From a virus (lineage: Duplodnaviria; Caudoviricetes): a DNA stretch of 64,000 nucleotides. A program made the position numbers and the translations under genes. The notes under the pieces are model-generated. The model ran no database searches. It saw only the letters and a list, made by a program, of their open reading frames with translations, and was not told where the DNA came from. The DNA lies in the IMG/VR virus record IMGVR_UViG_3300002220_000740, positions 28,246 through 92,245 of that record; one strand, given 5' to 3'. Positions 40,328 through 64,000 of the stretch are shown in pieces; the stretch's first letter is position 1, and the number at the start of each line of letters is the position of its first letter.

Positions 40328-40332
40328 TACTC

Positions 40333-41103: not shown

Positions 41104-41129
41104 TTTCAATATTTATTGGTTTAACATTA

Positions 41130-42064: not shown

Positions 42065-42142
42065 AGAATTCCCTGTTGGTATTATATCGTACCAAATTAA
42101 TTCAGAGGGAACTTTGAGTCTGTCCGAGTGACAGAAAGGGCT

Positions 42143-42182
42143 GTTATATCTATAGCCCTTTTATGGAGAAAAGGTTTATAAG
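42143..42182. repeat. ~40-bp imperfect palindromic direct repeat, copy 1
   Basis: GTTATATCTATAGCCCTTTTATGGAGAAAAGGTTTATAAG, matching 44934-44972. Confidence 0.8.
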
Positions 42183-42219
42183 TTTCTATCAGAAACGAAT
42201 CCTGATATAAGTTATGTAA

Positions 42220-44463: not shown

Positions 44464-44484
44464 TCTATATATTATTATCGAACT

Positions 44485-44850
44485 TTAAACTGGTTGTATA
44501 ATTGAGTACCAATGAAAGCCCCCATCGTAAATGAATGTAATGAGGTTATGTACACCCACTGTAGGATCGTAATCTGAACTCCCCGAGCTTTTAACGAATG
44601 TGGAATCAAAGGTAGGAGTATGAACGCCATCCGCTACCAAATGATATATAGCTCCAAACCCAATTTCATCAGGCTTGGTGTCATCAACAATAAATTCATC
44701 TGAGGATTCTAACGTATGATAAATTACAGAACATGCAAGATCGAATGGAACAAACAGACTATACGGTCTCACCCGCGGTAATAGTTTCTTTATATCTATT
44801 TGCAGTCTTTCTTCCTCAGTTACACCAACTGGTCTCTTAAATCTTTTCAT
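44485..44850 (-). CDS. hypothetical protein (tail-fibre-associated)
   Basis: 121 aa beta-rich; NLITFIYDG..WYSI C-terminus. Confidence 0.6.
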   Translation of the reverse strand: MKRFKRPVGVTEEERLQIDIKKLLPRVRPYSLFVPFDLACSVIYHTLESSDEFIVDDTKPDEIGFGAIYHLVADGVHTPTFDSTFVKSSGSSDYDPTVGVHNLITFIYDGGFHWYSIIQPV

Positions 44851-44933
44851 GACCCTATTATTTATTTAATACAATGTTTAACGCTAAATTAATCTACGTG
44901 ATCCCCGACACCGGAAAATCCTGCGCCAGGAAC

Positions 44934-44972
44934 GTTGTATCTATAACCCTTTTACCATAAAAGGTTTATAAG
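44934..44972. repeat. ~40-bp imperfect palindromic direct repeat, copy 2
   Basis: GTTGTATCTATAACCCTTTTACCATAAAAGGTTTATAAG. Confidence 0.8.
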
Positions 44973-44981
44973 GATTAAACC

Positions 44982-45956: not shown

Positions 45957-45961
45957 AACTT

Positions 45962-46366
45962 TTAGCTACAAGTTAAAACTGTTCCATCCTGAAAAATTGT
46001 CAAATCTATGTGTTCAGTACCTCGTGTAATCCTGATTGTTGCTCCATGACAATCCTCTATTACTGTATTAGTAAACACTGATACTTGAAGAGGATCTCCA
46101 TTAACCCCTCCTGTCGTAAACCAATCAATTATGCTGTACGTATCATTATAAATTGCCGCAGACCATAGTCCCGAAGAATATACCTGCACCCAATCATCAC
46201 CATAAGCTATACCATAAGTATCATAATATAAACTATTTACTGAAAGAGAGACAGCATCAACAGGAACTGTTTGTCCATCAATAGCACTTATGGCTTCTCT
46301 TAATGCAGAGTTCACTCTGCCAAAAAGAGATTCATTAACACTATCCATATATTGAATTACCCCCAT
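45962..46366 (-). CDS. BACON-like domain protein
   Basis: VYSSGLW...DW...G..LQVSVFTN....ATIRIT.....LTIFQDG pattern. Confidence 0.6.
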   Translation of the reverse strand: MGVIQYMDSVNESLFGRVNSALREAISAIDGQTVPVDAVSLSVNSLYYDTYGIAYGDDWVQVYSSGLWSAAIYNDTYSIIDWFTTGGVNGDPLQVSVFTNTVIEDCHGATIRITRGTEHIDLTIFQDGTVLTCS

Positions 46367-49300: not shown

Positions 49301-49417
49301 AGCCTTGGTCAGGTCAAGATCCGTCAGGCTTCGATTAACCCGAATGAAAGCATCGCGGAGAGGTGTTCCTGTACCGTCATTTGCTACAAGTCCAACATTT
49401 ACCAGTTCTATTGCCAT
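46367..49417 (-). CDS. tail fibre protein with internal repeats
   Basis: N-terminal VNVGLVANDGTGTPLRDAF; HxH motifs; DDHxQY..RGDARYS twice; three ~70-aa repeats; C-terminal AGEAL..GNLVY..GKVWKA domain. Confidence 0.8.
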   Translation of the reverse strand: MAIELVNVGLVANDGTGTPLRDAFIRVNRSLTDLDLTKAQVFYSEPTHPYNVNDLYITSERLYVCVNASTGAYQLTDWDAALDISSIVTSHGDLINLGEDDHLQYFNITRGDARYSLIGHDHSGIYSPIAHTHTGVYAPIIHTHLIVDITDYVPGSGADVSDWFEIVNPGLPNEYLRCKKPFAGDYEIQAWTSTGWLPPTIWESMPLATSTSIGGIQLGSGNTLFLREDGTWQEASGGAVYPPAGIPVSNGIAWGASITNNSANWNTAYGWGDHAGLYAPAVHNHDDRYFTETEINSWFELVGTAPNQYIRCKFPFAGDYEIQAWSDTGWLPPTIWESMPLATSTTVGGIQLGSGATLFLREDGTWQTVMTGSSMVYPGAGIALSTGSAWGTSITNNSANWNTAYGWGNHASAGYLTSQTSHADVVVDGDFTSQGIMLRDASAGIYSILTNNSTNWNTAYGWGNHAGLYRPISYVPAHNDTTSKQGGATGEYYHLIANIYNSLEYVPNGGSPYLRIKLPIACDYEIQAWSDFSQFPPTIWESMPLATSTSVGGIQLGSGSSLFLREDGTWQAASGASVSFGLSEQIPYTNTTVNNFLYSSNFSYDASEHTLNLACASAENAYLTLTYNTVPSLRLGASTVGGTIRGIGITISGINADGAQVGIGMHKSSATFLTVQDPDQTTPMTYAFAVNNSAGTGLFRIAEAGDVYILDLAAKASETNIVYYDSTTGKISYGAASSGGVTDHGALTGLGDDDHTQYYNQTRGDARYSLTTHNHAATYEPIISKSTGYLRYTGSAWEFKNETYALSSHTHAYIATTHTVNSIINGTGFLKNNGSGTWSWDNNTYVTGSGSNTRIAYWSSGSNITSNANLTYDGAVLTIERGIKLTAPSTSGTGSGIRSSFTAGEALAFGNLVYMKSDGKVWKAAASGITTTPVMGMCMGTVSANGAADILLSGRVYNSSWSLGTGGDVLYLTTSGGSFSVTAPSGVTGYVVQVIGVVLSATTIYFNPSLNRITLA
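47705..48931 (-). repeat. three ~70-aa repeat units within the fibre gene
   Basis: YxRxKxPxAxDYEIQAW...PPTIWESMPLATSTxxGGIQLGSGxxLFLREDGTWQ at about 48719-48931, 48317-48526 and 47705-47912, interleaved with TNNSxNWNTAYGWGxHA x3. Confidence 0.85.
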
Positions 49418-49698
49418 CAGATCTCGGTTGCATCAGAGAATATAAATGTCATGTCAGCTGTTAAAGGAATGGTAATGCGGACAGTGGAACCTGCATAAGT
49501 CAGGCTACTGGCTTCATATTCGATTTCATATTCTGCCCGAAGCAGGAACTCGTGCAGGATCTCCTGGAACAGGTCTTCGTGCTCGATCCCCAGCGCCATA
49601 CAGGTAGCCAGCTCCTTTGTCTTATGAGTAATGGAACTGTCAAGCGCAACAATAAAGTCTGCTACACTGTTATAATCGGCGGGATTGAGTGAGAACAT
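49417..49698 (-). CDS. hypothetical structural protein (possible tail hub)
   Basis: 93 aa; stop/start overlaps with both neighbours. Confidence 0.6.
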   Translation of the reverse strand: MFSLNPADYNSVADFIVALDSSITHKTKELATCMALGIEHEDLFQEILHEFLLRAEYEIEYEASSLTYAGSTVRITIPLTADMTFIFSDATEI

Positions 49699-50390
49699 TA
49701 ATGTCCGGGTTTAAAGATGTATACTCCAGTGTCCACAATTGTCTTCAGGGAAGCTGCCTTAATGTTTGCTTCCGAGTAGTAGCCGTGAGAGAAGTCATAG
49801 CGCAGGGCATACTGAATGATCATAAGCTTAAGCACCAGGTCCTTCATGTTGTCCAGGTCCTGCTTGTACGCAGTTTCGTCAGCACGAAGCAACAAGTACG
49901 AATTGATAGAGGTCGAAAGATATTCGTCTGACACCGCGGTCGTGAGCACCCGGCTGGTATAGGTTACCGTACCACCGGACCCACTGGTAAAGACCTTGTA
50001 GACGCCGTCCGGTAGGACTGAGTAATCAAATGGAATCACTGAACCGGCTGCGTCCTTATAGGTAAACTTGGCACTGTTACCGGCTGCCTTCAGATCATCC
50101 ACGGATATATGCATGAAAAGATCCAGGGCATCCGTATCATATCCCCATTTTTGCAGGTCTGCAAGCAGGTTGATAGAATAGTAAGAAGTGAGCAACGTAT
50201 CTATGTTGCCTACCGGCAGGTAGTACGGGGAAAGAAAGAAGGTACTCTTGAGAGTGAGCACCGACAGATCCGGGAATGTAATAACAACCGCATCTCCATC
50301 GGGGGTAAATACCTCATAGGTGCCATCGTTAAGAAGCTGCATGATGAGAGCTTCGCCTTTACGGATTGCAGTTTTTGCTATTACAGCCAT
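49698..50390 (-). CDS. hypothetical structural protein (possible tail hub)
   Basis: LPDGVYKV motif, helical C-terminus; lies between capsid accessory and fibre genes. Confidence 0.6.
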   Translation of the reverse strand: MAVIAKTAIRKGEALIMQLLNDGTYEVFTPDGDAVVITFPDLSVLTLKSTFFLSPYYLPVGNIDTLLTSYYSINLLADLQKWGYDTDALDLFMHISVDDLKAAGNSAKFTYKDAAGSVIPFDYSVLPDGVYKVFTSGSGGTVTYTSRVLTTAVSDEYLSTSINSYLLLRADETAYKQDLDNMKDLVLKLMIIQYALRYDFSHGYYSEANIKAASLKTIVDTGVYIFKPGH

Positions 50391-50402
50391 GGTTGAAAAT
50401 AT

Positions 50403-50430
50403 AAAAGAAAGGGGAGGATCACCTCCCCTC
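50403..50430 (-). terminator. Rho-independent terminator
   Basis: Minus strand AGGGGAGG-TGAT-CCTCCCCT followed by TTCTTTT. Confidence 0.82.
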
Positions 50431-50438
50431 TTAGGTGA

Positions 50439-51341
50439 TTAAAGTGAAACAGGAAGAGCAGCCTCAAGGAGATCGCCAAAGCTGGAAACAGCACCAGCAG
50501 TTTCAACGATGTACAGCTTGTGTACGTTTACACCCTGATATTTGCCACCGTCGACCGGATTGTATGCTTTTGCAAGCTCAAGCACATATATGTCAAAGGT
50601 TGAAACAGAAGGCTGAGCCTTGGAAGGAGCAACCTTGGGGAACAGAACCTTGTTCCACACGCCAAACTGGTAGGAGTTGCACTCCTGCTCCAGAGCCAGT
50701 ACCTTGGCAAGAGTACCCGTTGCCGGGATCATCTTGGTTGTCAGGACGGTCGTGAAGACAGATGCAAGATCATCAGTTGCCGAAGCAAAAGTGATGTCCT
50801 TGTCAGCGGTGAGAATCAGGGTAGTTGTACCGGAGGCAGTAATTGCAAAGTCCTCATCGGCATTGATCTGAGCCCTGAATGCATCCCCTACAGTTGTAGC
50901 TGTAAAGTCGGTACCCGTGTGAACAACCTGAAATGACTTGCGAAGCATCGGCATGGTGCCGGTCGTAAGGTCAATCAGCTTGATCGTGTAGATGTCACCG
51001 GGATACTGCGTTGCGGGAAGGACCGGGGTAATGGTAGTTACCTGGGCAGTTCCTGCGCTGTATGCAATCTTCTGGTATCTTACGATCTCAGAGAGACTGA
51101 ATTCAGGTGAGCAATAGAGAGTGAGGTCAGTGGCAGATCTGCGTGTGACAACCTTGAATTGGCGTTTCTCATTAGCGTTTGTATTCGCATCGGCGGCAAT
51201 AAAGCCAGCCAACGTAATTGCAAACGTGTCAGTAGGAAGCATTGAAGAGTCAGCAGGGACAATGCCGTACTGACCTGCGGCGAGAGTGCTTAAGGCACCG
51301 GCTACGCCGACTGTAGCTCCAGGAAAATAGATAGATTTCAT
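50439..51341 (-). CDS. auxiliary capsid/head structural protein
   Basis: Thr/Ala-rich; YSAGTAQVTTIT, GTLAKVLALE; followed by a terminator; crAss position. Confidence 0.6.
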   Translation of the reverse strand: MKSIYFPGATVGVAGALSTLAAGQYGIVPADSSMLPTDTFAITLAGFIAADANTNANEKRQFKVVTRRSATDLTLYCSPEFSLSEIVRYQKIAYSAGTAQVTTITPVLPATQYPGDIYTIKLIDLTTGTMPMLRKSFQVVHTGTDFTATTVGDAFRAQINADEDFAITASGTTTLILTADKDITFASATDDLASVFTTVLTTKMIPATGTLAKVLALEQECNSYQFGVWNKVLFPKVAPSKAQPSVSTFDIYVLELAKAYNPVDGGKYQGVNVHKLYIVETAGAVSSFGDLLEAALPVSL

Positions 51342-51363
51342 AATCGTTTAATTTTAAAGGTTT

Positions 51364-52398
51364 TTACTCGTTTTTCAGTGACTCCTGACTTGAACTCTGG
51401 TACCTCTGCGATTCTATAACCTCTAAAATGTGATTGACCACCAGGTCTACTATTTCCAAATGCGTGTGTTCAGGTAATTCACAATTGTATGACGAAGTTA
51501 AACTAACAGCCCTCGGTTTGCGCAAATAGACCATAAAGAGGTCTTTTAATATAAACCTTTCACCGCAGGGCATTACCAGAGTATTCTCCCTGATCACTCC
51601 AAGTGGCGATCTCTCAGTGGCTTTGGCATATGGATTTTCCTGGTTGTTATAAAGGTTCTCATGCTCAACGATTCTCACCGGCTTATTGTATACCGGAAAA
51701 TTATACACCGGATAATCCTTTACTATCCATGCCGTACCATTATAATATATAAGAGCGTTCTTTGCTACTACATGTCCAAGAACTGTTCCTGCCATGGCAG
51801 AGATGTAAAAGTCTCCCCTGGCTGGTACGGGCAAGACTGCGCTGGTGGTGTCCTTTGCCATGCCAAGATAGCGGGTTGCAATGCCGGTTTCAAGGACAAG
51901 CGGACGGACGTTGACAACCAGGTTCACGCGCATGGATACTTGTACAAAGAAGTCAAAAGCAGCAACCGTTCCCGTTCCTGTACCAGCCCCTGACGCGGTA
52001 AACACCGTGCCCACGTTGTTATTAGGAGCGCCTATGGTCATGAAATTGGTATTGCCCACCGTTACTATCTGGTAAGAAGAGCCGGATACCGTACCCGTAA
52101 CTGCACCCGGGGAAGCCGGACTCAACAGGTATTTCCTCTCGTCTGGGCTGGTATTGTCAATTATGGGCAGCAGGGTAACTTCTTTTACGATGGTCTGGAG
52201 ATCGGCAAGCCGTTTGGAGGTATCCTCGAACCCACGCCGTTTGGGATTGGAATCCGGATACAGGCGCTGCTTGATAAACGCTTCCTGCATATTGTTAATA
52301 AACAGGTCAATCTCCTGGGGTTGAAAATTCTCAAACACGTAGGAGTTCATATTCTGAAGCTTCTGCTCTATGGCAGTGTGCATGGCTTGTATTATCAT
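51364..52398 (-). CDS. head-tail ring protein with inserted domains
   Basis: EIDLFINNMQ, GFEDTSKRLADL, YLRKP, CELPEHTHLEIVDL are ring-protein motifs. Confidence 0.72.
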   Translation of the reverse strand: MIIQAMHTAIEQKLQNMNSYVFENFQPQEIDLFINNMQEAFIKQRLYPDSNPKRRGFEDTSKRLADLQTIVKEVTLLPIIDNTSPDERKYLLSPASPGAVTGTVSGSSYQIVTVGNTNFMTIGAPNNNVGTVFTASGAGTGTGTVAAFDFFVQVSMRVNLVVNVRPLVLETGIATRYLGMAKDTTSAVLPVPARGDFYISAMAGTVLGHVVAKNALIYYNGTAWIVKDYPVYNFPVYNKPVRIVEHENLYNNQENPYAKATERSPLGVIRENTLVMPCGERFILKDLFMVYLRKPRAVSLTSSYNCELPEHTHLEIVDLVVNHILEVIESQRYQSSSQESLKNE

Positions 52399-52409
52399 CG
52401 CTCTGAAGT

Positions 52410-52997
52410 TTAAATTATACCTTCAACTTTGAGTATCCCCATTATGTGCATGTTTGCAACACGTTGCCGGAACTCATTTGTCATCATCAGTCTGCATTCT
52501 TCCTCTGTGTCAAAGAAGAAGTTCTCAGTAAGAATCGCAGGACAGAGCGTGTTCTTCAGGATCGTAAAGTTCATTTCCTTATCAGGATCCTCTATTGAAG
52601 TGCCAATGCGCATCTTCATTTCAGGGAATTCTTTTGCTGCTTCCCCGTAGAACACTTTCGCCACCCTGTCTGAGGGCGTCTGTCCTTTTGATGTCCACAC
52701 CTCCCAGCCCCGACCCTTGCCTGCGTTTCCGTGAATGCTGATCAACACGGAGTTGTAGTTGGTTTTCACCAAGGTGTTCACGCGCTCAACTCGTTCGGAC
52801 AGGTTGACGTCATAATCCTCGGGCACCAGAATATGGAACCGGACATCCTCGCGACGTCCAAGCGTATACGCAATTCTGCGTACTATATCCCTGTTGTACT
52901 CCCACTCAAAGAGCTGGGAGCCGTCTGCCCATATCGGAGAGCGTTTGCCCACGGTGTTCTTTCCGTGTCCGCCATCCAGTATCCAGAGTCTGTTCAT
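52410..52997 (-). CDS. N-acetylmuramoyl-L-alanine amidase (Amidase_3), probable endolysin
   Basis: ILDGGHG, EWEYN, ISIHGNA, GWEVW, PAILTENFF. Confidence 0.92.
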   Translation of the reverse strand: MNRLWILDGGHGKNTVGKRSPIWADGSQLFEWEYNRDIVRRIAYTLGRREDVRFHILVPEDYDVNLSERVERVNTLVKTNYNSVLISIHGNAGKGRGWEVWTSKGQTPSDRVAKVFYGEAAKEFPEMKMRIGTSIEDPDKEMNFTILKNTLCPAILTENFFFDTEEECRLMMTNEFRQRVANMHIMGILKVEGII

Positions 52998-53000
52998 AAG

Positions 53001-53030
53001 TAGAAGTACCAGGCGTTACCCTGGTACTCT
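53001..53030 (-). terminator. stem-loop, possible weak terminator
   Basis: AGTACCAGG-GTAACG-CCTGGTACT followed by a weak U tail. Confidence 0.45.
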
Positions 53031-53035
53031 CTATA

Positions 53036-53848
53036 TTATTTAAACTCAGCCAATCTTGCTTTGAGGACGGTCACAGTCTCGCTGTGAGATTTGTCCTTAA
53101 AGTATTCGATCGTTTCCTCGACCGTGCCTCCCAGGCGCTCATCGCCGTTAAGGATCGAAGTGCCTACCCGGCGCAGCACGCTGCAACGGACGCAGTTCTC
53201 GATAAAGGCTTTGTACTCCAGGTTTGCATCCTTGAGAACCGCAAGAAATTTGTCGGGGGAATCCATCACGAATTTCTCCATCGAAAGTTCTCTTTGTTTC
53301 TCATCCATCTTGACCGCACCGTCAATTCCGCATACGTTCATCACCATGACAAGTTTCTCTTCGTTGGCGGTGAGCTTGATGAACTCCTTGTAGGCGTCCT
53401 TCTTGCCGCGAAGCTTCTCATAGTCAGCCTCAAGTTTCTTGGCTGTGTCAAGGATGAAGTACAGGTACTTGGCTGCCTTGGCATGTTCCTCGTCGGGAGC
53501 TACCTCGGGACAACCGACGCAAAAGCGGTACTTGATGTAATCGTTCAGGTTCAAAGGCTCACCGTCTTTGTCAACGCCTATCTCCAGTGGAGTGCCGCCC
53601 GGATGCAAAACTTCGACCGTAAGATTGGCAAAGTAATCCTTGACCTGCTTCTGGTAGGTGATGTCTGTGGACAGGATGCCGAGAACCCGTGGCATAAACC
53701 GGCGCTCTTCCTCGATTGTCATTCCCGAGCCTATGTCGCCTGTAGGAGTAAAATATGACCCGATCTTTTTCTTACTGTCTTCGTAAAGGTTTGCCGGGAT
53801 GTTTGTCGTATTCTTACGACGCTTGATTACTACGGTTTTTGAACTCAT
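53036..53848 (-). CDS. conserved crAss-like protein downstream of the MCP
   Basis: PLNLNDYIKYRF, LGGTVEETIEYF; directly after the major capsid gene. Confidence 0.7.
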   Translation of the reverse strand: MSSKTVVIKRRKNTTNIPANLYEDSKKKIGSYFTPTGDIGSGMTIEEERRFMPRVLGILSTDITYQKQVKDYFANLTVEVLHPGGTPLEIGVDKDGEPLNLNDYIKYRFCVGCPEVAPDEEHAKAAKYLYFILDTAKKLEADYEKLRGKKDAYKEFIKLTANEEKLVMVMNVCGIDGAVKMDEKQRELSMEKFVMDSPDKFLAVLKDANLEYKAFIENCVRCSVLRRVGTSILNGDERLGGTVEETIEYFKDKSHSETVTVLKARLAEFK

Positions 53849-53869
53849 ACTTTTTTCTTGGTTAGTATT

Positions 53870-53908
53870 AAAAAACTCTGGTACTACCCCTATTGATAGT
53901 ACCAGAGT
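53870..53908 (-). terminator. Rho-independent terminator after the MCP
   Basis: ACTCTGGTACTA-loop-TAGTACCAGAGT then TTTTT on the minus strand. Confidence 0.82.
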
Positions 53909-53917
53909 CTGAATTAT

Positions 53918-55372
53918 TTATGCAGCAACACAACGCAGGTGTAAGCAGTTGGTGGCACGTTTGATCTGGATACCGCCAGTCTTCATGAAATGGACAGAAG
54001 CTCCGTCAATGTCATTAGCCCTGGTGTTGTTTCCGGTAAAGCCCGGAGGAACAGTAGCACCGGCAACAGCCCATCTGAGCATGTCGCGTCCGGTCTGAAC
54101 TACCATCTGGATGTTGGGTTCGCCATCGTATGTTGAATGGTCAAGGAAGAACATCCTGTATGATTCCAGCGGTAAGCCGGTACGGGGATGCTTCGGTGAG
54201 TTCAGGGCGCGGGCGCCGTTGTCCAGAAGCGGGAGATGTCTCACGGTAATTACGTGACCGTCGATGTGCTTGTAAGAGGTGAAGAAACCGCCGAATTGCA
54301 TCGAGTTTCCTGAGCCGGTGATGAACGAACCCGGATCGGTATTCTTGATGTAGGATCCTGCAGAGATCTCGCTCTTGATAGCATTGTCAAACTCCTCAAG
54401 ACCACCGAGACCGGTGTAGAGTATGATGTTCATTGCCTGAGCATCCGATGCGCCAAAGAGAGCATCACGAACAGCATTCTTCAGTTTTGAAGTAGTAAGA
54501 ACAGTGTAGGTGTCAGTGTTGGGGATCTGCTCCATAACACCTGAACCCAAGGGAATAGGTTTGCCGTTCTCGTCGCGCAGGTTGATAACGCCATTGGCGT
54601 CCCTGTTGTACTTCGAAAACCACAGCTGGTATTCACCTTCTTCTTTCCAGCGAAGCATGTGCTGGTACTCTTCGAAGTCATACCACAGCTTGGTCTTCTT
54701 GCCATTGACGTTGAATTCAACGTTGACAACCTTGTTGGGCATGTTACCTTCGTAGCGGTAGGACTTACGGATCTGAGTGATCTGGTTGCGAGCCCTTGAG
54801 GGAGCGACCCAGTTCGATTCATTACCGCGTGATCCAGAAGCAGCCACGGGGGCGAATAACTGTACGAACAGCTTGTTCAGAAGGTCAGTTGTGCTAACCG
54901 TAGCTGTTACGTCAGTGGTGATCATCTTCGTGGTGTAGCTCCATCCGCCACTTGCAGTCTCAGAGCCGTCATCCATGATACGGAACTGGGTTCCATCAGG
55001 AGACTCTATGATGTACTGGCGTACGAACCACTTCTCAGTGAAGGTGAGCGTAATGTTGGCGAAGCCAGCTCCCAGCGATACGCCAGCAGTTGTTCCACCG
55101 TTTACAGCGGTACACATGACGGCTTTGTTCTGCCTGCCCATGATCGGGTAGTCATATTCAAATCCGTTGATGTAATGGATATTTCCCAGTCCTTCTGTAA
55201 GGAAAGAAAGCGGAAACCTTTTGTCTTCCCGACCTGCAAGGTGGGTAAGAACCGGTGACAGAACATCGGGCTGCGTAAGCAGTGCGTTAGCCAACGAGTT
55301 CTCGTCGGTCATCCCCTGCGGGTTCCAGATGTCTGCGTATAACCGGAGTTTTTGAATGTTGTCAGCAGCCAT
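53918..55372 (-). CDS. major capsid protein (crAss-type HK97 fold)
   Basis: MTDENSLA, FPLSFLTEG, RNQITQIRKS, LYTGLGG, HPRTGLPLESYRM; follows portal and scaffold. Confidence 0.9.
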   Translation of the reverse strand: MAADNIQKLRLYADIWNPQGMTDENSLANALLTQPDVLSPVLTHLAGREDKRFPLSFLTEGLGNIHYINGFEYDYPIMGRQNKAVMCTAVNGGTTAGVSLGAGFANITLTFTEKWFVRQYIIESPDGTQFRIMDDGSETASGGWSYTTKMITTDVTATVSTTDLLNKLFVQLFAPVAASGSRGNESNWVAPSRARNQITQIRKSYRYEGNMPNKVVNVEFNVNGKKTKLWYDFEEYQHMLRWKEEGEYQLWFSKYNRDANGVINLRDENGKPIPLGSGVMEQIPNTDTYTVLTTSKLKNAVRDALFGASDAQAMNIILYTGLGGLEEFDNAIKSEISAGSYIKNTDPGSFITGSGNSMQFGGFFTSYKHIDGHVITVRHLPLLDNGARALNSPKHPRTGLPLESYRMFFLDHSTYDGEPNIQMVVQTGRDMLRWAVAGATVPPGFTGNNTRANDIDGASVHFMKTGGIQIKRATNCLHLRCVAA

Positions 55373-55476
55373 TGTTTAATTGGTTTTTAGTAAGACAATA
55401 AGATTCGTTTGCCCATCCTTTGAAGGAGCGTGCTGCCTGTTCAACATTACTGGAAAAAATCACTTTTGCTGTAGTC

Positions 55477-56499
55477 TTAAAAAATCTCGTTTATGCCTGG
55501 GAGCTTAACCGGCATCTTCACCGGCTGTGATCCCGATCCACTCAGTTTCTTACCCGTCGTACTGCCGCCGAGTCCTGCCCTGAGTGAGCGTGCCTGGATT
55601 GTCTGAGCCTTGGCTGTTATAAGTTTGCCGAGGTCGAAGTTCTTGTAGAGAAGATATTCCATGGCTATCATGGTTTCAACATCCATCTTCTCCCTTGTCA
55701 GATCTCTCTGCGATCTTCCCTGCTTGTCAGCAGGCTTTGCCATCCAGTCAAAAAACTTCTTCTTTTCCGAATCCGGAATTTGTATGCCTTTGATCACGCC
55801 TGTGGTGACCGTGTTTTCAATTTTGCCCCAGAACTCCCGGGTCTCAGCGACCTCCTGGTCTTTTGCCTTCTGCTGGTTTGCCACTATTGCAGCGTGTTCC
55901 TTTTCCGACATCTTTGCCAGCTTGGTCTGGGCGTTCTTTGCTTGTTTAAACAGCAGTCCTGTATTGGAGTAGTCTGTGATTATCTCCTCAATCTCGGCTG
56001 CCTCGTATCCCTGTTTCACCAGGTACTTGTTAAGCATCGTCTTCTGCGTAGCTTCATCCTCTTCGGTCAGGGTTACCTTTTCGATCCCTGCTCCTGCAAC
56101 TGCCTCGCGGTACTTGTCCGGGTCACCCCCGTTTATGCGGTACCTTGTATACTCCTCGACGTCAGGGAACTGCTGGAAGAACTCAAGCAGCTGTGCGCTT
56201 GCCATCTTCTCTGCGACCTTGGGTACGAACGACTTCAATCCGTCCTCGTCATCGGGATATTCTTCGCCCTCTTCGAACTGATAACCGAAGCTGGTAGCCA
56301 GGTTAGCAATTACTGTGGGCTCATCTGTAGGTTCTCCAATCTCTGCTTCCTGTTCCTCAGCCACTTCAGGCTCAGGTTCTGGTTCAGGACTTGGTGCTGG
56401 CTCCGGTTCCGGATTAATATCAGGCTCTGGAGTTTGATCTGGTTCTGGTTCGGGATCGTTCGAAAACAGATCCGTCAGTTTAATGTCTTTGAAATCCAT
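55477..56499 (-). CDS. acidic scaffold-like protein between portal and MCP
   Basis: (EP)n repeat, very acidic N-terminus, coiled coil; ATG at 56499. Confidence 0.7.
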   Translation of the reverse strand: MDFKDIKLTDLFSNDPEPEPDQTPEPDINPEPEPAPSPEPEPEPEVAEEQEAEIGEPTDEPTVIANLATSFGYQFEEGEEYPDDEDGLKSFVPKVAEKMASAQLLEFFQQFPDVEEYTRYRINGGDPDKYREAVAGAGIEKVTLTEEDEATQKTMLNKYLVKQGYEAAEIEEIITDYSNTGLLFKQAKNAQTKLAKMSEKEHAAIVANQQKAKDQEVAETREFWGKIENTVTTGVIKGIQIPDSEKKKFFDWMAKPADKQGRSQRDLTREKMDVETMIAMEYLLYKNFDLGKLITAKAQTIQARSLRAGLGGSTTGKKLSGSGSQPVKMPVKLPGINEIF

Positions 56500-56505
56500 A
56501 CTATA

Positions 56506-56513
56506 CAAATTTA
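56506..56513 (-). promoter_or_regulatory. Bacteroidota sigma-A -7 element TAAATTTG
   Basis: Exact TAnnTTTG 6 nt upstream of the ATG at 56499. Confidence 0.45.
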
Positions 56514-56564
56514 TGTTACCTATTACCTATGGGTGGTTGCTATGTAAATGCGTTATTATATCGA

Positions 56565-58931
56565 CTATTTCTTCGCAGCAGGCTTTTTGGCAGCTGCTTT
56601 TTTGATGATTTTGTCCGCAGCAATCTTCTTTTCAGCTACATCCAACTTGCGGTTTTCTATCTTCTCCTTGGAGGAAAGTTCCTTCATGCGCATGTCTATT
56701 TCAGCCAGGCGTGAGGCACGCTTCTCAGCCAGTTCACCGGTGTTCTTCTCACGGTCCACACTGATGCGTTCGGTTTCGATCGAGTCTGTGGTGCCGTCGT
56801 TATCAGCATCATTGTCCCCGTAGAGCTTACCGTTGATATTGAGCAATGCAATTTTCTCCTTGCTCAGGCGGTCAAGTTCGTTCTGCTCGGCTTCGAATGC
56901 CTGTGCGGCTTCCTGTTCCTGTGCTTTAGCCTGGAGCATCATCTGCTGGGCTTCCTGTTCGGCAGCCATCTGCTGCTGTTCAAGTGCATCGGCAGCTGCA
57001 TCAACCTCGGCAAGCTTGAGCTTAATTTTCGAGAAGTTCTTGCTGTCCAGGATCTCGGCTATTGTAGAAGGCTTAGCCTTGTTCTGAGCGAACTCCAGGG
57101 CAAGAGATTTAAGTGCCTGCAGTTTATCCTGCTCTTCACCACTCTTGGTTACAAACACACCGTAGTCGGCGTTGCAGTAAACCTCGGGATTGATTTGCAA
57201 AAATGCCTGGCGGAAATCGCTGGTAGTGTATGAAGACTTCTTCCCATCAGCCCAGGCAATCTGGGAGATATCAACAAGACCCTGGAGGTCACGTTGCTCG
57301 ACGGTCTCGAACTTACGGAATAGATCCTCGGTCATTACCGTAGACTGGTACACCGCACGCTCGCTGGTGCCCTGACCATCGGAAGCCATGATGTTGCCTT
57401 TCCTCTGGCGCGAGATACCCATCATCTCTTCCCACTCGCCCTTGATGGCGGCAAGCAGCTCGAACTGAGCAGAGATGTATTGTCCCAGGGACATATCCAG
57501 AACCTGGAACTGGTTGAAAGCTACCCTCTCTTTATCCTTACCCTCAGCAGTTGAATCAATAAAAGCAAAGCCATTAGCGTCAGCATGATACATGAATTTT
57601 TCCTCATCCCAGCCGTGGCGCTTTGGTATCGTGTTGATCTCTATGAGGGCGATCTTATCTTTATTCTTGGCTATAGACAGTTCAAGCCGATAATGGAAAA
57701 TGTTGTAAAGCATCTGATAGGGCATCCCCAGGGAGACTACCGATACCGGATCTGAGTTCCTGTCAGAATAGATCCGCCCGTTGTAGGGGAGCTTGCACAG
57801 CGAAGGATTGTTCATTCGGTTGCGCTGCTCGGCTATGGGTTTGATGCCCAGGTAAATGTCCTTGTCTACACGGTAGCCTTCCCAGACCTCGTTGATCCAG
57901 AACCACTCGATCCACTCGCCGGCGGCGTGATCCACCTTGTAGATCTCCGATACGCGAGCTTCTTCATCGGTCCCTGTCACAGGGTCCTTGTAATGCAGGA
58001 TACCTTCCTTGCGGAAAGATTTCCATACACCGTGATAAACATCTATGAGCTCACCCGGGAGAGCATTAATCCCCGGTCGGTTAAGGGTGAACCCGTCTTT
58101 GGTGCCGGCATAAAAGCCGCTACCCGGGCTCTCAAGGTAATCTATTTGAGCAGGAGTGAGTTCATCATAGAACTTATCAACAATATCATTTACACTCATC
58201 TGTGCGCTACGCACACATGAGGGAAGATCTTCAATAAACCGGACGTTGGGGACGATCGGGTAGGAGAGGTCCATCGGGTTAACTATCTCATAGGATGGCT
58301 CCTCATGATCAATGCACTTATAAGTACACACCGTCCCCGTTACCAGCCAGTCAAAAAAGCCGGTCATCAAATGATCTGGAATCTCCAGGGCGGACATCAT
58401 GTAATCCAGGGCTTCACCGCCCATGATTGCACGCTGATCACGGTAGTTCTTGGCTACCTCAGCCTGTACCTCAGCAGGATCCTGCGTCTCCTCGCTGGGG
58501 ATACCCGTGGGAAGCCCGGCTTCGTTGACGGCATTGATGAACTGCTGCTGAAGGGTCTTCATCACAGCAGCCTGCTCAGCCTCTTCACGGCGTGTGACGG
58601 CATCGGCATTCTTTACAATGACCTGGTAGTTAAGGGGACGCTTGGTCTTTTCTCCCAGCAGGAGATCGACAACCGGTCGGATAATATTGTAGCTCCGCAG
58701 TCGTGCGGGCATCTTGTATGTCTTATTCCCTGCCTTGTAGGGATCGGTCACGTATTTGTATTCGACAGGATTGATCACTCCGTTATACCCGTCGTAATAA
58801 CTCTTGTACTTGGTATACTCCGTTGTGGTGGTGAACGACGCATTAATAATAGCATCGAGGGATTGCTCCCCCCACACCTTATCTTTGGCGCCCTGCGCAA
58901 CCTTCTGCTTCGGGAAATTAGGAATGCTCAT
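56565..58931 (-). CDS. portal protein
   Basis: YNIIRPVVDLLLGE, WINEVWEG, KLPYNG, GISRQRKG; directly after TerL. Confidence 0.9.
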   Translation of the reverse strand: MSIPNFPKQKVAQGAKDKVWGEQSLDAIINASFTTTTEYTKYKSYYDGYNGVINPVEYKYVTDPYKAGNKTYKMPARLRSYNIIRPVVDLLLGEKTKRPLNYQVIVKNADAVTRREEAEQAAVMKTLQQQFINAVNEAGLPTGIPSEETQDPAEVQAEVAKNYRDQRAIMGGEALDYMMSALEIPDHLMTGFFDWLVTGTVCTYKCIDHEEPSYEIVNPMDLSYPIVPNVRFIEDLPSCVRSAQMSVNDIVDKFYDELTPAQIDYLESPGSGFYAGTKDGFTLNRPGINALPGELIDVYHGVWKSFRKEGILHYKDPVTGTDEEARVSEIYKVDHAAGEWIEWFWINEVWEGYRVDKDIYLGIKPIAEQRNRMNNPSLCKLPYNGRIYSDRNSDPVSVVSLGMPYQMLYNIFHYRLELSIAKNKDKIALIEINTIPKRHGWDEEKFMYHADANGFAFIDSTAEGKDKERVAFNQFQVLDMSLGQYISAQFELLAAIKGEWEEMMGISRQRKGNIMASDGQGTSERAVYQSTVMTEDLFRKFETVEQRDLQGLVDISQIAWADGKKSSYTTSDFRQAFLQINPEVYCNADYGVFVTKSGEEQDKLQALKSLALEFAQNKAKPSTIAEILDSKNFSKIKLKLAEVDAAADALEQQQMAAEQEAQQMMLQAKAQEQEAAQAFEAEQNELDRLSKEKIALLNINGKLYGDNDADNDGTTDSIETERISVDREKNTGELAEKRASRLAEIDMRMKELSSKEKIENRKLDVAEKKIAADKIIKKAAAKKPAAKK

Positions 58932-58998
58932 AACCCCAAATTAAGTCTCGCGCGCGCGTTGTAATGTGAACTGTTTTCATCCTTATAGTATAGCCTAT

Positions 58999-61044
58999 TC
59001 AAAAGAAGTCTCTGTCCCAGAAGCTGCTGGTCGACTCCTCGACCGCCTCGGTAACCTCCTTGTTATATAAATCCTTCATATGGTACATCCCCACGATCAT
59101 AGAAGAAACCCTATCGTAATTGCCGTTACCGTAACGGATGAGCTCATCAAGAAGCTGTAAGTCGTAGATATAGTGAAGGTTCATTTTTATCTTACCCTCT
59201 TCATCCTCACTCCGCTTGGTTGTGAGCCAGTCACGCAGGTAGATCTCGCCCTGTCCTTTACGCTCTTTGTTCGAGATACTCATCCCGTAGGTACGCCCGA
59301 GCTTGCGTATGTTGATGTTCTCCCGCTTGTCAATAATCTCCACCTCTTCGAGCAGCATGCGAAGTTTCTTCTTGCGCTTGGCAAACTCGATGATGTTACC
59401 CCGGTCGTTCTCAAAGCCTATTCTCGCGCCATAATACTCGGCAAGCAGGAACAGTGTTTCGTTGTATTCGTCCTGGGTCCCGGGGCGTCCCACCCAGGAA
59501 GCGACGATCATATCGTCAGGCTTGGACCACTGGTTCACACGCTTGATCACGTACGCCGCTCCCAGCGACTGCCCTGCTCCCTCGTCCTGTGCGTAAGGGT
59601 CACAGACCACAACATACAGGTTAGTGGGAATACTGCCATCCGCAGCATAATAAGGGGGCTGGTAAATGGTTACACAACCGTGGACATCGTCTCCCTTTTC
59701 ATGGGGGAACTTCGCCACCGGGCGTGCTTTGTCCGAAGGCTTAAAGATTACCTTGCCTTCGACGCCGTCGCCCAGGAAACCATGTACACCCAGGTTCTTA
59801 TAAAGTCCGTGGGTAAAGACATGGTTACGCCACTCGGAAATAGCGACCGTCGGGAAAATGTTACCGCTGGTACGCAGGAAAGCCTCTCGCGGATTAAATG
59901 GACGCTCAGTGACGTATTTGTCCAATATTGCCGGAGATTTGGCAGTGCGTCTGATGTTCTCGCGCTTGGCTTCTTCATATTCTTTTGCAGCTTCTATGTT
60001 TGAGTTCCCATTGGAGTCTATGAATCCCTTTTTATTCTGGTAGTCGGGGAAGAAGAATCCGCAATGCGTACCGCGGGCATTGTCATCCCACACGTTCTCA
60101 ATGGGGTAGAGATTATACGGCTCGGGGTTATAGAACATCGACTCGAAGTCAATTGTTCCCCCTTCCATGTCACCACCGGTGCCATAGAGGATGATCTGCC
60201 CGGTAATCAGGGCGCCGTCCTCGACGGTTGCCTGGGTTGCAAGATATGCAGCCTTCAGGTTGTTGAACGCCCCGCACTCTTCCAACAGGATCAGCGATGC
60301 ATCCTTACCACGGGCAGCATCGGGGTTGTCGGCAAAGGTGGTGGCTATGATCTGTGAGCGGTAGCCCTTCTCGACGTAGATCCCGTTGATCTGCTCCAGG
60401 TACGAAGCCTTAACGTGCTCCATACGGTTGGTCACACCCCGGCGCTTTGTCCAGGCGGTGTGCTCATTCATGAAGTTCAGATTGTCCACGATCATCGACA
60501 TGGTCCCGTTGGGGTACAGGTACTTTTTATCAAAAGCACCCACCAACGTGATCGAGTCACGGATCGTGTTATACTTATTTGCGGCTTTCGCCGCATTCTT
60601 GTAGGAGAATCCCTTTCTACGCGCCTTGCCGCAGATCACATGATGACCTCCGTCCAGCCACATTGGCTGCTGGTCAAGAGCCAGTTCCAGGAGAAGCTCC
60701 TCGGAGATCCCCTTCTCGGCGATGTCAATATGCCAGTAGTAGTCGTAGTCCCCGTCCCAGAAGTCCGGGAAGGTCACGGTCTTAATCTTGAACCGTGTTC
60801 GCTTTTTGGTTACCCCCTTGATCTCATCAACATCCTCGGTGAGTTTGATTTGGTTGAAGTTCAGGTAATGGTAATGGTCTCCGGTAATGCGCTTTCCTCC
60901 CGAAGAGTATCCCTCGCTACAGCGCCTGGACTGCTCGGTCCAGTACTCCATGAATCCCATGGACCCTGGCGGGTCGTCACAGTAGCGTCCGTACTTGAGG
61001 AAGGTTCTTGACTCCTCGCGGAACATTTCGGAGTTTACCCACAT
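58999..61044 (-). CDS. terL: terminase large subunit
   Basis: KARRKGFS Walker A, LLEECG Walker B, YGTGG, CDPY, FENDRG, NYDRVS nuclease motifs; no intron or intein seen. Confidence 0.94.
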   Translation of the reverse strand: MWVNSEMFREESRTFLKYGRYCDDPPGSMGFMEYWTEQSRRCSEGYSSGGKRITGDHYHYLNFNQIKLTEDVDEIKGVTKKRTRFKIKTVTFPDFWDGDYDYYWHIDIAEKGISEELLLELALDQQPMWLDGGHHVICGKARRKGFSYKNAAKAANKYNTIRDSITLVGAFDKKYLYPNGTMSMIVDNLNFMNEHTAWTKRRGVTNRMEHVKASYLEQINGIYVEKGYRSQIIATTFADNPDAARGKDASLILLEECGAFNNLKAAYLATQATVEDGALITGQIILYGTGGDMEGGTIDFESMFYNPEPYNLYPIENVWDDNARGTHCGFFFPDYQNKKGFIDSNGNSNIEAAKEYEEAKRENIRRTAKSPAILDKYVTERPFNPREAFLRTSGNIFPTVAISEWRNHVFTHGLYKNLGVHGFLGDGVEGKVIFKPSDKARPVAKFPHEKGDDVHGCVTIYQPPYYAADGSIPTNLYVVVCDPYAQDEGAGQSLGAAYVIKRVNQWSKPDDMIVASWVGRPGTQDEYNETLFLLAEYYGARIGFENDRGNIIEFAKRKKKLRMLLEEVEIIDKRENINIRKLGRTYGMSISNKERKGQGEIYLRDWLTTKRSEDEEGKIKMNLHYIYDLQLLDELIRYGNGNYDRVSSMIVGMYHMKDLYNKEVTEAVEESTSSFWDRDFF

Positions 61045-61142
61045 CAGATCTTGGTTCTACTACCGGAAAAAACAGCATCCTCAAGGCTGGTAAGGAATGA
61101 CTTGCGGTATTCCTCTTCCTGCAGCTCGATCCAGGATTTCAT
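61044..61142 (-). CDS. 32-aa ORF translationally coupled on both sides
   Basis: MKSWIELQEEEYRKSFLTSLEDAVFSGSRTKI; ATGA overlap upstream and TGATG overlap with terL. Confidence 0.5.
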   Translation of the reverse strand: MKSWIELQEEEYRKSFLTSLEDAVFSGSRTKI

Positions 61143-62104
61143 AACTCGATGACTTTTCTCCTCTGACTCTCGGGTGAGTGTAGGACCTCGTGGAATTCGT
61201 AGTGTCCGTCTGAGAAGATGTCCACGTAGGCAAAGCCCCAGTGGACCACCTTTGTACACCGCAGGGTGCCGAACTTGGTCATGGCTCCCTGGAGCGCCGG
61301 CAGCACAACGGCTGTGCGGAACCCATCATCTATGCGGATGAACGTATGCGCATGCGAGCGTACCACGATGTCCGCGGTGGGGTTATGCTCCATCTGCGCC
61401 CAGAGATCACTCCAGAGTGCGTCTTTGAGTAAGGGGGTGGCAGCACCATAGGGCGTTGAAGACCCACCCACATGGTGCTTTACATTGAAGATAATGCCAC
61501 CTATGTTAAGAAGGTTCTCGGCATTGAGGATCGCCCCGGTCTGCTGGGCGATGTTGTACTCGAAGGCTTCCCCGTCGCCGGCATGGTACGGGGTGCCGTA
61601 GGAGATCACGTTGACGTTGGCTCCGACGGTATCCATCACTTTAACAGCCATGTCCACCTGGATATTCCGGTCGGTGGTGATAAGTTCGGTTCCCTTGCTC
61701 TTTTTACCATCCCCGTCAATGAGGTCACCGTTGAAGATGGCGTGAGTGAAAGGTTTCAGGCTGTCAATGGTGTTTATAAAGAAATTCCAGGTCTCCCTCT
61801 GGAACTCAGCAAAGGTCTTGTCTGCCACCGAGTCCAGGGGAAGCTGATATCCCTGTGGGGTTAGACCGGCTTTGTGACCGCAGTGAAAATCTCCGGCAAG
61901 CAGAACCCTGTATTTGGGACGCTCGCGGAGAGCTTCACGCATTGCCTGCTCGTTGTAAAGAGCAAAACTTATCAGTGTTGCTTCCCTGGAAGACAACTTA
62001 AGGTCCCGGATTATCTGAGGTTTTGTCAGTTCTGGGTGCATCCGCCTGTAGGCGAATATTTTAGCCAACTCAATAGGCGAGTATTTCTTTGGTACAGAAG
62101 CCAT
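61139..62104 (-). CDS. calcineurin-like metallophosphoesterase with an N-terminal HTH-like segment
   Basis: GDFHCG, NGDLIDG, GTPYH, KHH, SHAH. Confidence 0.85.
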   Translation of the reverse strand: MASVPKKYSPIELAKIFAYRRMHPELTKPQIIRDLKLSSREATLISFALYNEQAMREALRERPKYRVLLAGDFHCGHKAGLTPQGYQLPLDSVADKTFAEFQRETWNFFINTIDSLKPFTHAIFNGDLIDGDGKKSKGTELITTDRNIQVDMAVKVMDTVGANVNVISYGTPYHAGDGEAFEYNIAQQTGAILNAENLLNIGGIIFNVKHHVGGSSTPYGAATPLLKDALWSDLWAQMEHNPTADIVVRSHAHTFIRIDDGFRTAVVLPALQGAMTKFGTLRCTKVVHWGFAYVDIFSDGHYEFHEVLHSPESQRRKVIEL

Positions 62105-62106
62105 GG

Positions 62107-62703
62107 TTAGTTTTCAAATGCGTTAATATCTCCACCGCCACGGATCTTACGTCCGTTACTTTGCTCCGTCTTGACTTTCTCTTCCAGGTCCTCAAGTGTA
62201 CCTATAGCCTTTGGCAGCTTATCGGCAAGTACGAGGAGACTGGAAACGGATTGAACTATCTGATTAATTTCTTCAATATCAGAGTCTCCCCCGTCGGTTT
62301 CGGAAGGAGTATTAAACTTTATCAGGCGATCCTCAATGCGGGACCGCAGTGTTTCTATGACCTTGGTTGATGTCATCAGCGACTCACGGATTGCGATCAA
62401 GGTGCTGATCGAAGGGGTGCGCTGCAGCTCGTCGTACTTGCGTTCAGCGTCCATGACAGCCTTATCGGGCGTCCAGTCCGGGGAGAACCCCAGCTCGCGT
62501 TTGACCCTCTGGATGCGTTCATCCTTGGGGTAGATGACATATGGGGACTTGTAATCGGTGACAAAGTAGATGTATGCCAGCTCCTGGAACGAGCGTTTTT
62601 TATCCGGGGTCTTATCGCGCCGGATCAGAATGGCAAACTCCGGGATCATCTTGATCTCCGGAGCTATTATTATTTGGTGATTTTCTTCTGCGAAGACTCC
62701 CAT
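62107..62703 (-). CDS. conserved protein upstream of terL (putative terminase small subunit)
   Basis: ELAYIYFVTDYKSPY, helical, C-terminal KIRGGG; position in the packaging block. Confidence 0.55.
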   Translation of the reverse strand: MGVFAEENHQIIIAPEIKMIPEFAILIRRDKTPDKKRSFQELAYIYFVTDYKSPYVIYPKDERIQRVKRELGFSPDWTPDKAVMDAERKYDELQRTPSISTLIAIRESLMTSTKVIETLRSRIEDRLIKFNTPSETDGGDSDIEEINQIVQSVSSLLVLADKLPKAIGTLEDLEEKVKTEQSNGRKIRGGGDINAFEN

Positions 62704-62951
62704 ACCTTGGATTGTTTTTCGAGCCGGCGGTTAGCCATAGACTCATTGAGCTTCTTGAGCCTCCCGGGCTTGACCAGGAACTTGCCCAGGTAGGGCAGGC
62801 TGATGGCTTCAAACCCGCTGTGCTCAATTATGTGGGTGGCATACTTGCTCTGTGTACGCACGATGGACATCACTTCTTCCACCGGGGCGCCTATCTCCTT
62901 GGAGATCTCTCTGCATATCTGCAGTTCGAGGTCGTTCTTATCGTAGCCCAT
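62670..62951 (-). CDS. HU/IHF-like DNA-binding protein
   Basis: EISKEIG...ISLPYLGKFLVKP. Confidence 0.7.
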   Translation of the reverse strand: MGYDKNDLELQICREISKEIGAPVEEVMSIVRTQSKYATHIIEHSGFEAISLPYLGKFLVKPGRLKKLNESMANRRLEKQSKVWESSQKKITK

Positions 62952-63286
62952 TATGCGTCGACGAATTTGAATGCAAGTCCATTGCGGAAGTTCTCAGGAT
63001 CGAGTATCGGGTTGTAGGAGTATATTCCAAACTTGTTCACGTTCATGATGCCCTTGTCCTTAAACTTCTTTATGTAGTTGTTCAAAACCGCAACGTTTTT
63101 CATTTCGCACTTCTGTACGACTATGGCTTTGACTTCGGGGGAGCAGGGCTCCTTTGTGTTCACCGCCAGGAATGTCTCAAGAACCTTAAGTTCTTTGTCG
63201 GATAGTTTCAGGAGTCCGTTCAGGATCTCCAGGTAAGCGTTGATGTAACTGGTACCTTCTTTAATTCGGATGGTTAGTGTCTTCAT
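62951..63286 (-). CDS. winged-helix DNA-binding protein
   Basis: LSDKELKVL...LNNYIKKFKDKGIM...YSYNP. Confidence 0.6.
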   Translation of the reverse strand: MKTLTIRIKEGTSYINAYLEILNGLLKLSDKELKVLETFLAVNTKEPCSPEVKAIVVQKCEMKNVAVLNNYIKKFKDKGIMNVNKFGIYSYNPILDPENFRNGLAFKFVDA

Positions 63287-63560
63287 TATGCTGTTTTACA
63301 TTCTGCACTTTCCGGGCAAGCCGCTTCTTGAGCAGTCGCCGGATATTCTTAAGCTCGTATATGATGTGTTGGTTTTCGGCAGAGTAGCGGGTCTTCTGTA
63401 AATGATAGAAGCGTTCGATAAGCATGTCAATGACTTCCTCGTTGGTCGTGCCGTTACTGTACCCGCTTGGGGCAAGTTTTTCGGTGAACCTGATGAACTG
63501 TGTGCTCTCTCCATTGAAATTCGCAAGCTCGAATTCTGTCCCTTCTTTTATTACTTTCAT
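63261..63560 (-). CDS. Tad1-like (Acb2/Tad1 family) cyclic-nucleotide sponge, divergent
   Basis: IRF....NGTTNEEVIDMLIERFYHLQ....SAEN...L...R...R pattern resembles Tad1. Confidence 0.6.
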   Translation of the reverse strand: MKVIKEGTEFELANFNGESTQFIRFTEKLAPSGYSNGTTNEEVIDMLIERFYHLQKTRYSAENQHIIYELKNIRRLLKKRLARKVQNVKQHNEDTNHPN

Positions 63561-63710
63561 CTTCGCAGTATAAAATGTTGTATAGGGAACGAATATACTT
63601 GCTATTCAAAAATAAGCAGAATAATGTTCTGTTTAACAGGATCTATATAGACTTTTTATATACTGTTGATAAGTATTAGATTTTAAACGGAATAAAACAT
63701 AACTTTGGGT

Positions 63711-63739
63711 AAAGAAAAATGCCCCGAAAAGGGGGGCAT
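63711..63739 (-). terminator. terminator downstream of tRNA-Asp
   Basis: Minus strand ATGCCCC-CCTTTTC-GGGGCAT followed by TTTTCTTT. Confidence 0.75.
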
Positions 63740-63758
63740 CCGTACTTCTTCCGTACTT
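63739..63758. repeat. tandem 9-bp direct repeat (TCCGTACTT x2, 11-bp period)
   Basis: Copies at 63739-63747 and 63750-63758. Confidence 0.7.
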
Positions 63759-63776
63759 GGAACGTTCTTTGTTGTT

Positions 63777-63796
63777 GTAACTGATTGAAAATCAGC
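63777..63796. other. short palindrome immediately 3' of the tRNA (possible recombinase-binding site)
   Basis: GTAA-CTGATT-GAA-AATCAG-C. Confidence 0.5.
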
Positions 63797-63804
63797 AAAC
63801 TCAG

Positions 63805-63879
63805 CGGTGCGGACGGGACTCGAACCCGCGACCCTCGGCGTGACAGGCCGATATTCTAACCAAACTGAACTACCGCACC
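63805..63879 (-). tRNA. trnD: tRNA-Asp (GTC), CCA not encoded
   Basis: GGTGCGG/CCGCACC acceptor stem, D-loop with GG, TCGGC-CTGTCAC-GCCGA anticodon arm, GGTTCGAGTCC T-loop. Confidence 0.97.
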
Positions 63880-63889
63880 AAAAGCGATG

Positions 63890-63919
63890 CAAAATTAATG
63901 CATTTTTCCATTCCTCAAA
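63890..63919 (-). promoter_or_regulatory. Bacteroidota sigma-A promoter of the tRNA (TTTG...TAATTTTG)
   Basis: TTTG at 63916-63919 and TAATTTTG at 63890-63897, 10 nt before the tRNA. Confidence 0.7.
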
Positions 63920-64000
63920 ATAATTTGTTCAAATATATCTGGCATGCCCATGATCCCAACCAATTAGCCTCCGCGGCTGACTTAAAACCTATGATATATA

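Follow-up and report, generated by a model that had tools for sequence, protein, structure and literature searches.

The junction at the right end of the window (the whole stretch of 64,000 nucleotides analysed here) is very probably the attR site of a complete crAss-like prophage of around 91.9 kb, inserted by a tyrosine integrase in the tRNA-Asp(GTC) gene of a Rikenellaceae bacterium. A tyrosine integrase gene is present, a 41-bp direct repeat corresponds to the 3' part of the tRNA, the outer flanks are host DNA that is contiguous in uninfected relatives, and a joined attP exists in a relative of the phage. The window corresponds to positions 28246-92245 of record IMGVR_UViG_3300002220_000740 (92,245 bases, from a hydrocarbon metagenome, CheckV completeness given as 100%) and ends at the last base of the record, so that both share the same right edge. 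The phage unit is 91,924 bp long (record 125 to 92048) and the host flanks in the record are short, around 120 bp each. The integrase gene, the three GTACGG sites of the P' arm (record 243-269) and attL all lie outside the window, in the left part of the record. Features are listed in Table 1.

Table 1. Features of the prophage, its attachment sites and its flanks; positions are those of the window unless the record is indicated.
Feature	Position	Strand	Basis and remarks
Intact tRNA-Asp(GTC)	63804-63879	-	ARAGORN; the one tRNA in the whole window
tRNA-Asp promoter, Bacteroidota type		-	TTTG, 18 nt, TAATTTTG; ends 10 nt before the tRNA 5' end
attR core, 41 bp	63804..63844 (record 92049-92089)		From the first base of the anticodon to one base past the discriminator
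Palindrome CTGATT-GAA-AATCAG	63781-63795		CTGATTGAAAATCAG (CTGATTTTCAATCAG on the minus strand); P arm, 8 bp from core
Two arm-type repeats (presumed integrase sites)	63739-63747 and 63750-63758		TCCGTACTT (minus strand: AAGTACGGA); 11 bp start to start; P arm
Intrinsic terminator	63717-63741	-	Terminator scan; 9 pairs, then T-run; directly after the repeat pair
First gene of late operon (packaging/structural), 99 aa	63261-63560	-	ORF list
Right host flank (Rikenellaceae DNA)	63880..64000		Carries the tRNA-Asp promoter, read on the minus strand
Prophage body within the window	1..63803		Prophage runs on leftward to record base 166
Major capsid gene	53918-55372	-	Pfam PF23898 Crass_capsid, E = 1.8e-84, profile 5-493 of 496
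Portal gene	56565-58931	-	phrog_6547, E = 1.7e-121
TerL gene	58999-61044	-	phrog_6681, E = 2.4e-134
attL core, 41 bp	record 125-165		Record searched with the att region; same orientation as attR core
P'-arm sites GTACGG, GTACGG, inverted CCGTAC (presumed integrase sites)	record 243, 254, 264		From 77 bp right of core
Tyrosine integrase gene, 385 aa	record 289-1446		PF00589, E = 1.1e-10; PHROG phrog_1, E = 4e-25
AntA-type antirepressor gene	record 3736-4380		PF08346, E = 1.2e-14; 2.3 kb from the integrase gene

A previous reading of the DNA based on its letters only (the sequence-only reading) had described at this place a complete tRNA-Asp with a Bacteroidota promoter and no encoded CCA, followed on its 3' side by a palindrome, two repeats, a terminator and the first gene of the late operon, and ARAGORN and the sequence itself confirmed each of these elements in its position. 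The phage has no tRNA of its own within the window according to ARAGORN. All 76 nt of the tRNA-Asp are identical to those of the tRNA-Asp in both empty host sites (loci L005 and L007), the 5' part of the gene being host-derived and the 3' part supplied by, or shared with, the phage, while the CTGA after the discriminator G implies that no CCA is encoded. A 28-mer covering the tRNA start and the promoter region in the right flank was found without mismatches in seven Bacteroidales/Rikenellaceae genome assemblies. On the minus strand, the tRNA is followed by 8 nt, the palindrome, 22 nt, the repeat pair, the terminator, around 150 nt and the first late gene, homologues of which head the same operon in a sister phage (IMGVR_UViG_3300037486_000490, hereafter G350) and in two other crAss-like loci, L041 and L085. 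The palindrome alone is close to what chance would give in an AT-rich stretch of 300 bp; a TGAT...ATCA inverted repeat occupies the same relative place in the attP of G350 and beside a tRNA-Gln gene in a Rikenellaceae genome (L115). The palindrome may serve as a site for an accessory protein or, in the tRNA transcript, fold into a hairpin within the 3' trailer. As for the suggestion of the sequence-only reading that TAACTGATTGAAAATCAG-type motifs flank integrative elements of Bacteroidota, only the short TGAT..ATCA inverted repeat recurs.

The sequence-only reading had also proposed that a duplicate of the tRNA 3' end, more copies of the repeat and a tyrosine integrase, absent from the window, would be located beyond its left edge, and the three were found in the left part of the record. 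The attL and attR cores are identical in 41 of 41 positions and their neighbouring bases differ on both sides, the intact tRNA-Asp being present at the right end of the prophage only. The junction had been interpreted as attL/attR (or attP) of an integrating crAss-like phage; the data support this and specify it as attR, the junction more distant from the integrase, instead of attP. The integrase scores 42 bits with PF00589 (cut-off 27.1) and aligns to the XerC-like recombinase 4A8E, with the catalytic motifs TGMR(236), H333TAR336, GH359 and RPY368 in place. There are 37 copies of GTACGG in the 92,245-base record, five of them within the two 150-bp phage-side arms, versus around 0.12 expected, which excludes chance as the origin of the arm repeats. 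According to their position and conservation, they are presumed to be the binding sites of the N-terminal domain of the integrase. The P' arm also contains a perfect 10-bp inverted repeat, GGTATAACCT..(21 nt)..AGGTTATACC (record 166-215), starting 8 bp from the core and with 9 of the 10 positions conserved in G350, which may be a site for an accessory factor. Regarding lysogeny functions, Pfam and PHROGs searches recognised neither an excisionase nor a CI-type repressor, the AntA antirepressor being the only match of this kind. The small ORFs at record 1600-3636, a divergent cluster between the integrase and AntA genes, gave no Pfam or PHROG match, and the repressor and the excisionase could be located there.

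The same target in its uninterrupted form was identified in relatives of the host. In the Rikenellaceae metagenome-assembled genome (MAG) contig CAVYRA010000014.1 the left flank, the tRNA and the right flank are contiguous (93.9% identity over 297 bp), constituting attB, with genes for XdhC, a MobA-like transferase and an amidohydrolase as neighbours of the tRNA-Asp; a second empty attB with a single intact tRNA-Asp is present in another Rikenellaceae MAG contig, CAVOLF010000006.1 (92.3% over 248 bp). The right flank (121 bp) is 90% identical to the empty-site contig L005, where it is contiguous with a single tRNA-Asp and the left flank, and 98% identical to a stretch of a 112-kb contig (L126) that continues into host genes. 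Public assemblies contain the exact integrase on nine contigs and the exact 99-aa late protein also on nine. A JGI contig of 165,400 bp (3300002219) is identical to the record over the first 11,446 bases, which indicates that the record is the provirus part of a longer host contig. Two ENA contigs, k127_15751 (111,743 bp) and k141_309781 (165,060 bp), cover the capsid gene, the late operon, attR and the tRNA before entering host genes. The presence of host genes to the right of window base 64000, suggested beforehand as a way to check the integration, was thus observed in these longer assemblies: past attR, the 112-165 kb contigs encode XdhC, an NTP transferase (MobA-like), a 2Fe-2S protein, a Mo-hydroxylase large subunit, SusD and a SusC-type receptor, XdhC and the transferase being the same genes found beside the empty site. 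The notion that the contig ends represent a cut at a gene boundary was rejected, since the record corresponds to the first 92,245 bases of the 165,400-bp contig; in the empty site the next host gene begins 55 bp past the equivalent of window base 64000. On the left side, only 124-240 bp of host flank have been assembled (L123:1-240, L124:1-226 and record 1-124), all assemblies ending there, and from record base 24 outward the flank no longer resembles the empty-site genomes. This would be explained by a repeat, a second insertion or differences between strains at that place.

The joined arrangement was found in G350, a genome of 92,500 bp with a 126-bp terminal repeat and the sole close relative of this phage in IMG/VR (80% identity in the integrase and 84% in TerL), which over its whole length is a collinear circular permutation of the record. 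Its attP region comprises, uninterrupted and in this order, the homologue of the 99-aa gene, a terminator, two TCCGTACT repeats, the TTGATAATCAA inverted repeat, a tRNA-Asp fragment, GGTATAACC..GGGTATACC, three GTACGG sites and the integrase gene. Thus, in the free form the two ends of the prophage adjoin each other, which is what an attP should look like. G350 carries 34 bp of the 3' end of tRNA-Asp and no whole tRNA at that place. Compared with the prophage, the arm repeats show no base changes in the midst of variable sequence, and the hairpin of the terminator has been maintained in spite of different bases in its stem. Elsewhere in G350, ARAGORN identified a 'tRNA-Stop' with anticodon TTA (L032:940-1008), a possible ochre suppressor, and a tRNA-Met. 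For the attP of the phage itself, neither a 71-mer of the exact junction in viral contigs nor a 29-mer of the junction between core and P' arm in metagenome contigs gave any match; a search with the conserved pattern of P'-arm repeats returned the known relative only among viral contigs and nothing among metagenome contigs. No excised, circular or attB form was found for this phage either, every contig with the exact integrase showing attL.

The identity of the phage was assessed from its gene content, the long late operon on the minus strand encoding TerL, portal and major capsid protein. The Crass_capsid gene was recovered again in the genome-wide search, and the matches of TerL in GenBank are all below 60% identity, the best being Flavobacterium phages of the genus Fipvunavirus (38.5%), followed by Bacteroides, Cellulophaga, IAS and crAssphage records. 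Together with the capsid, TerL and portal matches, these distant relatives indicate that the phage is crAss-like in a broad sense and far from the human-gut families. The nearest cultured relatives by TerL, the Fipvunavirus phages FpV4 and Fpv3, resemble it in size (around 88-92 kb) and in the order small genes-TerL-portal-major head protein, and differ in that the 12 kb inspected contain no annotated integrase; they are listed by NCBI outside Crassvirales. The phage studied here is called crAss-like on the basis of its gene matches. Two ORFs of 3987 and 1403 aa occupy the place expected for the giant virion-packaged RNA polymerase and have no PHROG match. Other contents of the genome include adjacent RIIA-like (phrog_612, E = 7e-62) and RIIB-like (phrog_609, E = 8e-38) genes in the early region (window 4313-7965) and a complete Type III restriction-modification pair inside the prophage (record 10257-15829; Mod, PDLC03638, E = 2e-173; Res, PDLC03654, E = 1.3e-25). 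The latter is part of a block of around 17 kb (record 2.6-20.2 kb), whose counterpart in the alignment with G350 is only around 7.7 kb long, and is likely cargo for lysogenic conversion or defence.

In the mechanism that we propose from this organization, the integrase would bind the two GTACGG sites of the P arm, 47 bp from the core, and the two direct and one inverted sites of the P' arm, 77 bp from the core, and strand exchange between attP and the tRNA-Asp gene would take place inside the 41 bp of identity. As attP copies the 3' part of the tRNA, an intact tRNA-Asp is rebuilt at attR. The rebuilt gene would still be driven by the host promoter, and its transcript would end at the terminator supplied by the phage, which would also shield the late operon from tRNA read-through in the lysogen. 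The displaced 3' fragment of the host gene and the host terminator would be left at attL, beside the integrase gene. Excision would be the reverse reaction, probably requiring a directionality factor.

How far the att sites are still functional has to be considered along with these results. They likely constitute a working switch, an activity that we infer, given that the attP of the phage itself was not found and that only integrated forms were seen. The alternative that this is a domesticated or defective prophage, which no longer excises or makes virions and whose att sites are scars, would agree with the finding of integrated forms only, on nine contigs from several assemblies, with the failure to detect its attP and with the lack of a recognised excisionase or repressor; we nevertheless consider it unlikely, because the two cores have kept full identity, the integrase is not truncated and retains its catalytic motifs, and the genome is collinear from end to end with a circular free relative, with its long ORFs intact and a CheckV completeness of 100%. 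The enrichment metagenomes were sequenced as total DNA and not as virion preparations, so the absence of attP is weak evidence for a defective element.

The remaining explanations deny the integration itself and we regard them as very improbable. In one of them, a phage that is in fact free and circular, with an attP having 41 bp in common with the host tRNA, might have been wrongly joined to the tRNA-Asp locus during assembly, since such a repeat could mislead an assembly done with a short k and the flanks in the record reach only around 120 bp. Against such a chimera, the same continuity between attR and the host is present in the k127 and k141 assemblies, which come from different samples, and in two JGI assemblies, and both junctions exist with the exact geometry of site-specific recombination; k127 and k141 both exceed the 41-bp repeat, which makes a mis-join very unlikely. 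An even more remote prospect is that the tRNA-Asp simply belongs to a non-integrating crAss-like phage. Genes for tRNAs are common in crAss-like phages, and the tRNA-Met of G350 is an example, but in the present case the host contributes the 5' half and the promoter, which continue into host genes, a second copy of the 3' part is located next to the integrase at the opposite end, and G350 has at this place the 34-bp fragment only, not a tRNA. The empty sites and the host genes past attR refute this reading. Integration of the crAss-like prophage at tRNA-Asp is the explanation followed below.

Related integrases, 51-66% identical, were found in five Rikenellaceae genomes. In one of them (G169:C82, L115:600-2640), downstream of a tRNA-Gln gene there are TGATTATCA, two GTACGG with a spacing of 11 bp, a terminator and a gene for a 51%-identical integrase, i.e. 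the P-arm layout of the attR described here, associated with another tRNA; past the integrase, the 4-kb locus contained no second tRNA-Gln fragment. Two crAss-like sequences from IMG/VR sample 3300025133 (L041:4600-6100 and L085:3500-4800), with TerL 56-58% identical and integrase 31-34% identical, have the integrase gene adjoining a full tRNA-Gln or tRNA-Asn at the junction between early and late genes, with phage genes on both sides, and the position of the cassette relative to three small ORFs differs between them, each having it on a different side. These observations lead us to put forward, tentatively, that the integrase-attP unit could be a portable lysogeny cassette which moves between crAss-like phages and other mobile elements of Rikenellaceae and is retargeted to different tRNAs. 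Such a cassette might comprise the mimic of the tRNA 3' end, the TGAT..ATCA inverted repeat, two GTACGG 11 bp apart, the terminator and int. If this possibility were true, the temperate lifestyle would arise repeatedly within the crAss-like assemblage instead of being a one-off event.

Elements of this type are rare in genome collections, given that Crass_capsid gave no match above cut-off in 349 Rikenellaceae species genomes, with a positive control that worked, and matched in 3 of the 401 Bacteroidales species genomes sampled. The best of these matches, with a full gene, was on a Bacteroidales MAG contig of 96,369 bp (G717:C25, L136), which encodes a TerL 59% identical and, 3 kb upstream of it, a recombinase homologue of 259 aa (32% identical), a third hint of a portable cassette. 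The first 13 kb of the contig lack a tRNA and it provides no evidence of integration, and its size suggests that it is a binned free phage.

Integration in tRNA genes by tyrosine recombinases is a classical process, known from the lambda-type Int with its arm-type sites, from P4/P22-type phages that reside in tRNA genes and, in Bacteroides, from NBU1 and NBU2, whose targets are the 3' ends of tRNA-Leu and tRNA-Ser. The element described here shares with them the tyrosine recombinase, regeneration of the tRNA thanks to an attP core that reproduces its 3' part, short repeats clustered in both arms, and the int gene beside att. It differs in its carrier, a 92-kb crAss-like genome of podovirus type, in the length of the core (41 bp), in that no excisionase was recognised, and in the terminator supplied by the phage directly beside the P-arm repeats. 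With respect to crAss-like phages, their temperate nature has been argued since their discovery; to our knowledge, the cultured members have no lysogeny genes, and the group is usually called non-integrating.

The prototypic crAssphage, Carjivirus communis, has been reported to be a phage-plasmid that does not integrate (bioRxiv 10.1101/2024.03.20.585998), and epsilon crAss-like phages were reported to have a repressor and antirepressors, with no integrase found (PMC11054128). The phage described here has in common with them the crAss-type capsid and packaging module, persistence without obligate lysis and an AntA-type antirepressor; while they persist extrachromosomally or by unknown means, it is inserted in the chromosome by site-specific recombination. 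According to a mouse catalogue from 2026, some crAss lineages are enriched in integrases (PMC13503771). In the Metagenomic Gut Virus catalogue (2021), 48 of the 9,395 crAss-like genomes (0.51%) were host-flanked and had an integrase (PMC8241571), which resembles the present case in all three features, so that integration in the group had already been counted. Those 48 contigs come from the human gut and were given as a statistic only, whereas the phage studied here derives from a hydrocarbon metagenome and a Rikenellaceae host. In the papers searched we found no description of the att sites, target gene, attB or attP of those contigs, nor any account of a crAss-like prophage at the level of its att sites.

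This work therefore provides a rare fully resolved case of lysogeny in the crAss-like group, for which the 48 host-flanked contigs were the only published sign of integration found. All four sites are available for one lineage, since the prophage provides attL and attR, uninfected genomes related to the host provide attB, and the sister phage provides attP. The mechanism is classical, and being textbook knowledge its surprise is limited; it is new for this phage lineage. Besides offering in its tRNA-Asp-targeting integrase a possible integration tool for Bacteroidales, the identification of the att sites, the integrase with its likely arm sites, the host family Rikenellaceae and the source cultures makes crAss-like lysogeny directly testable.
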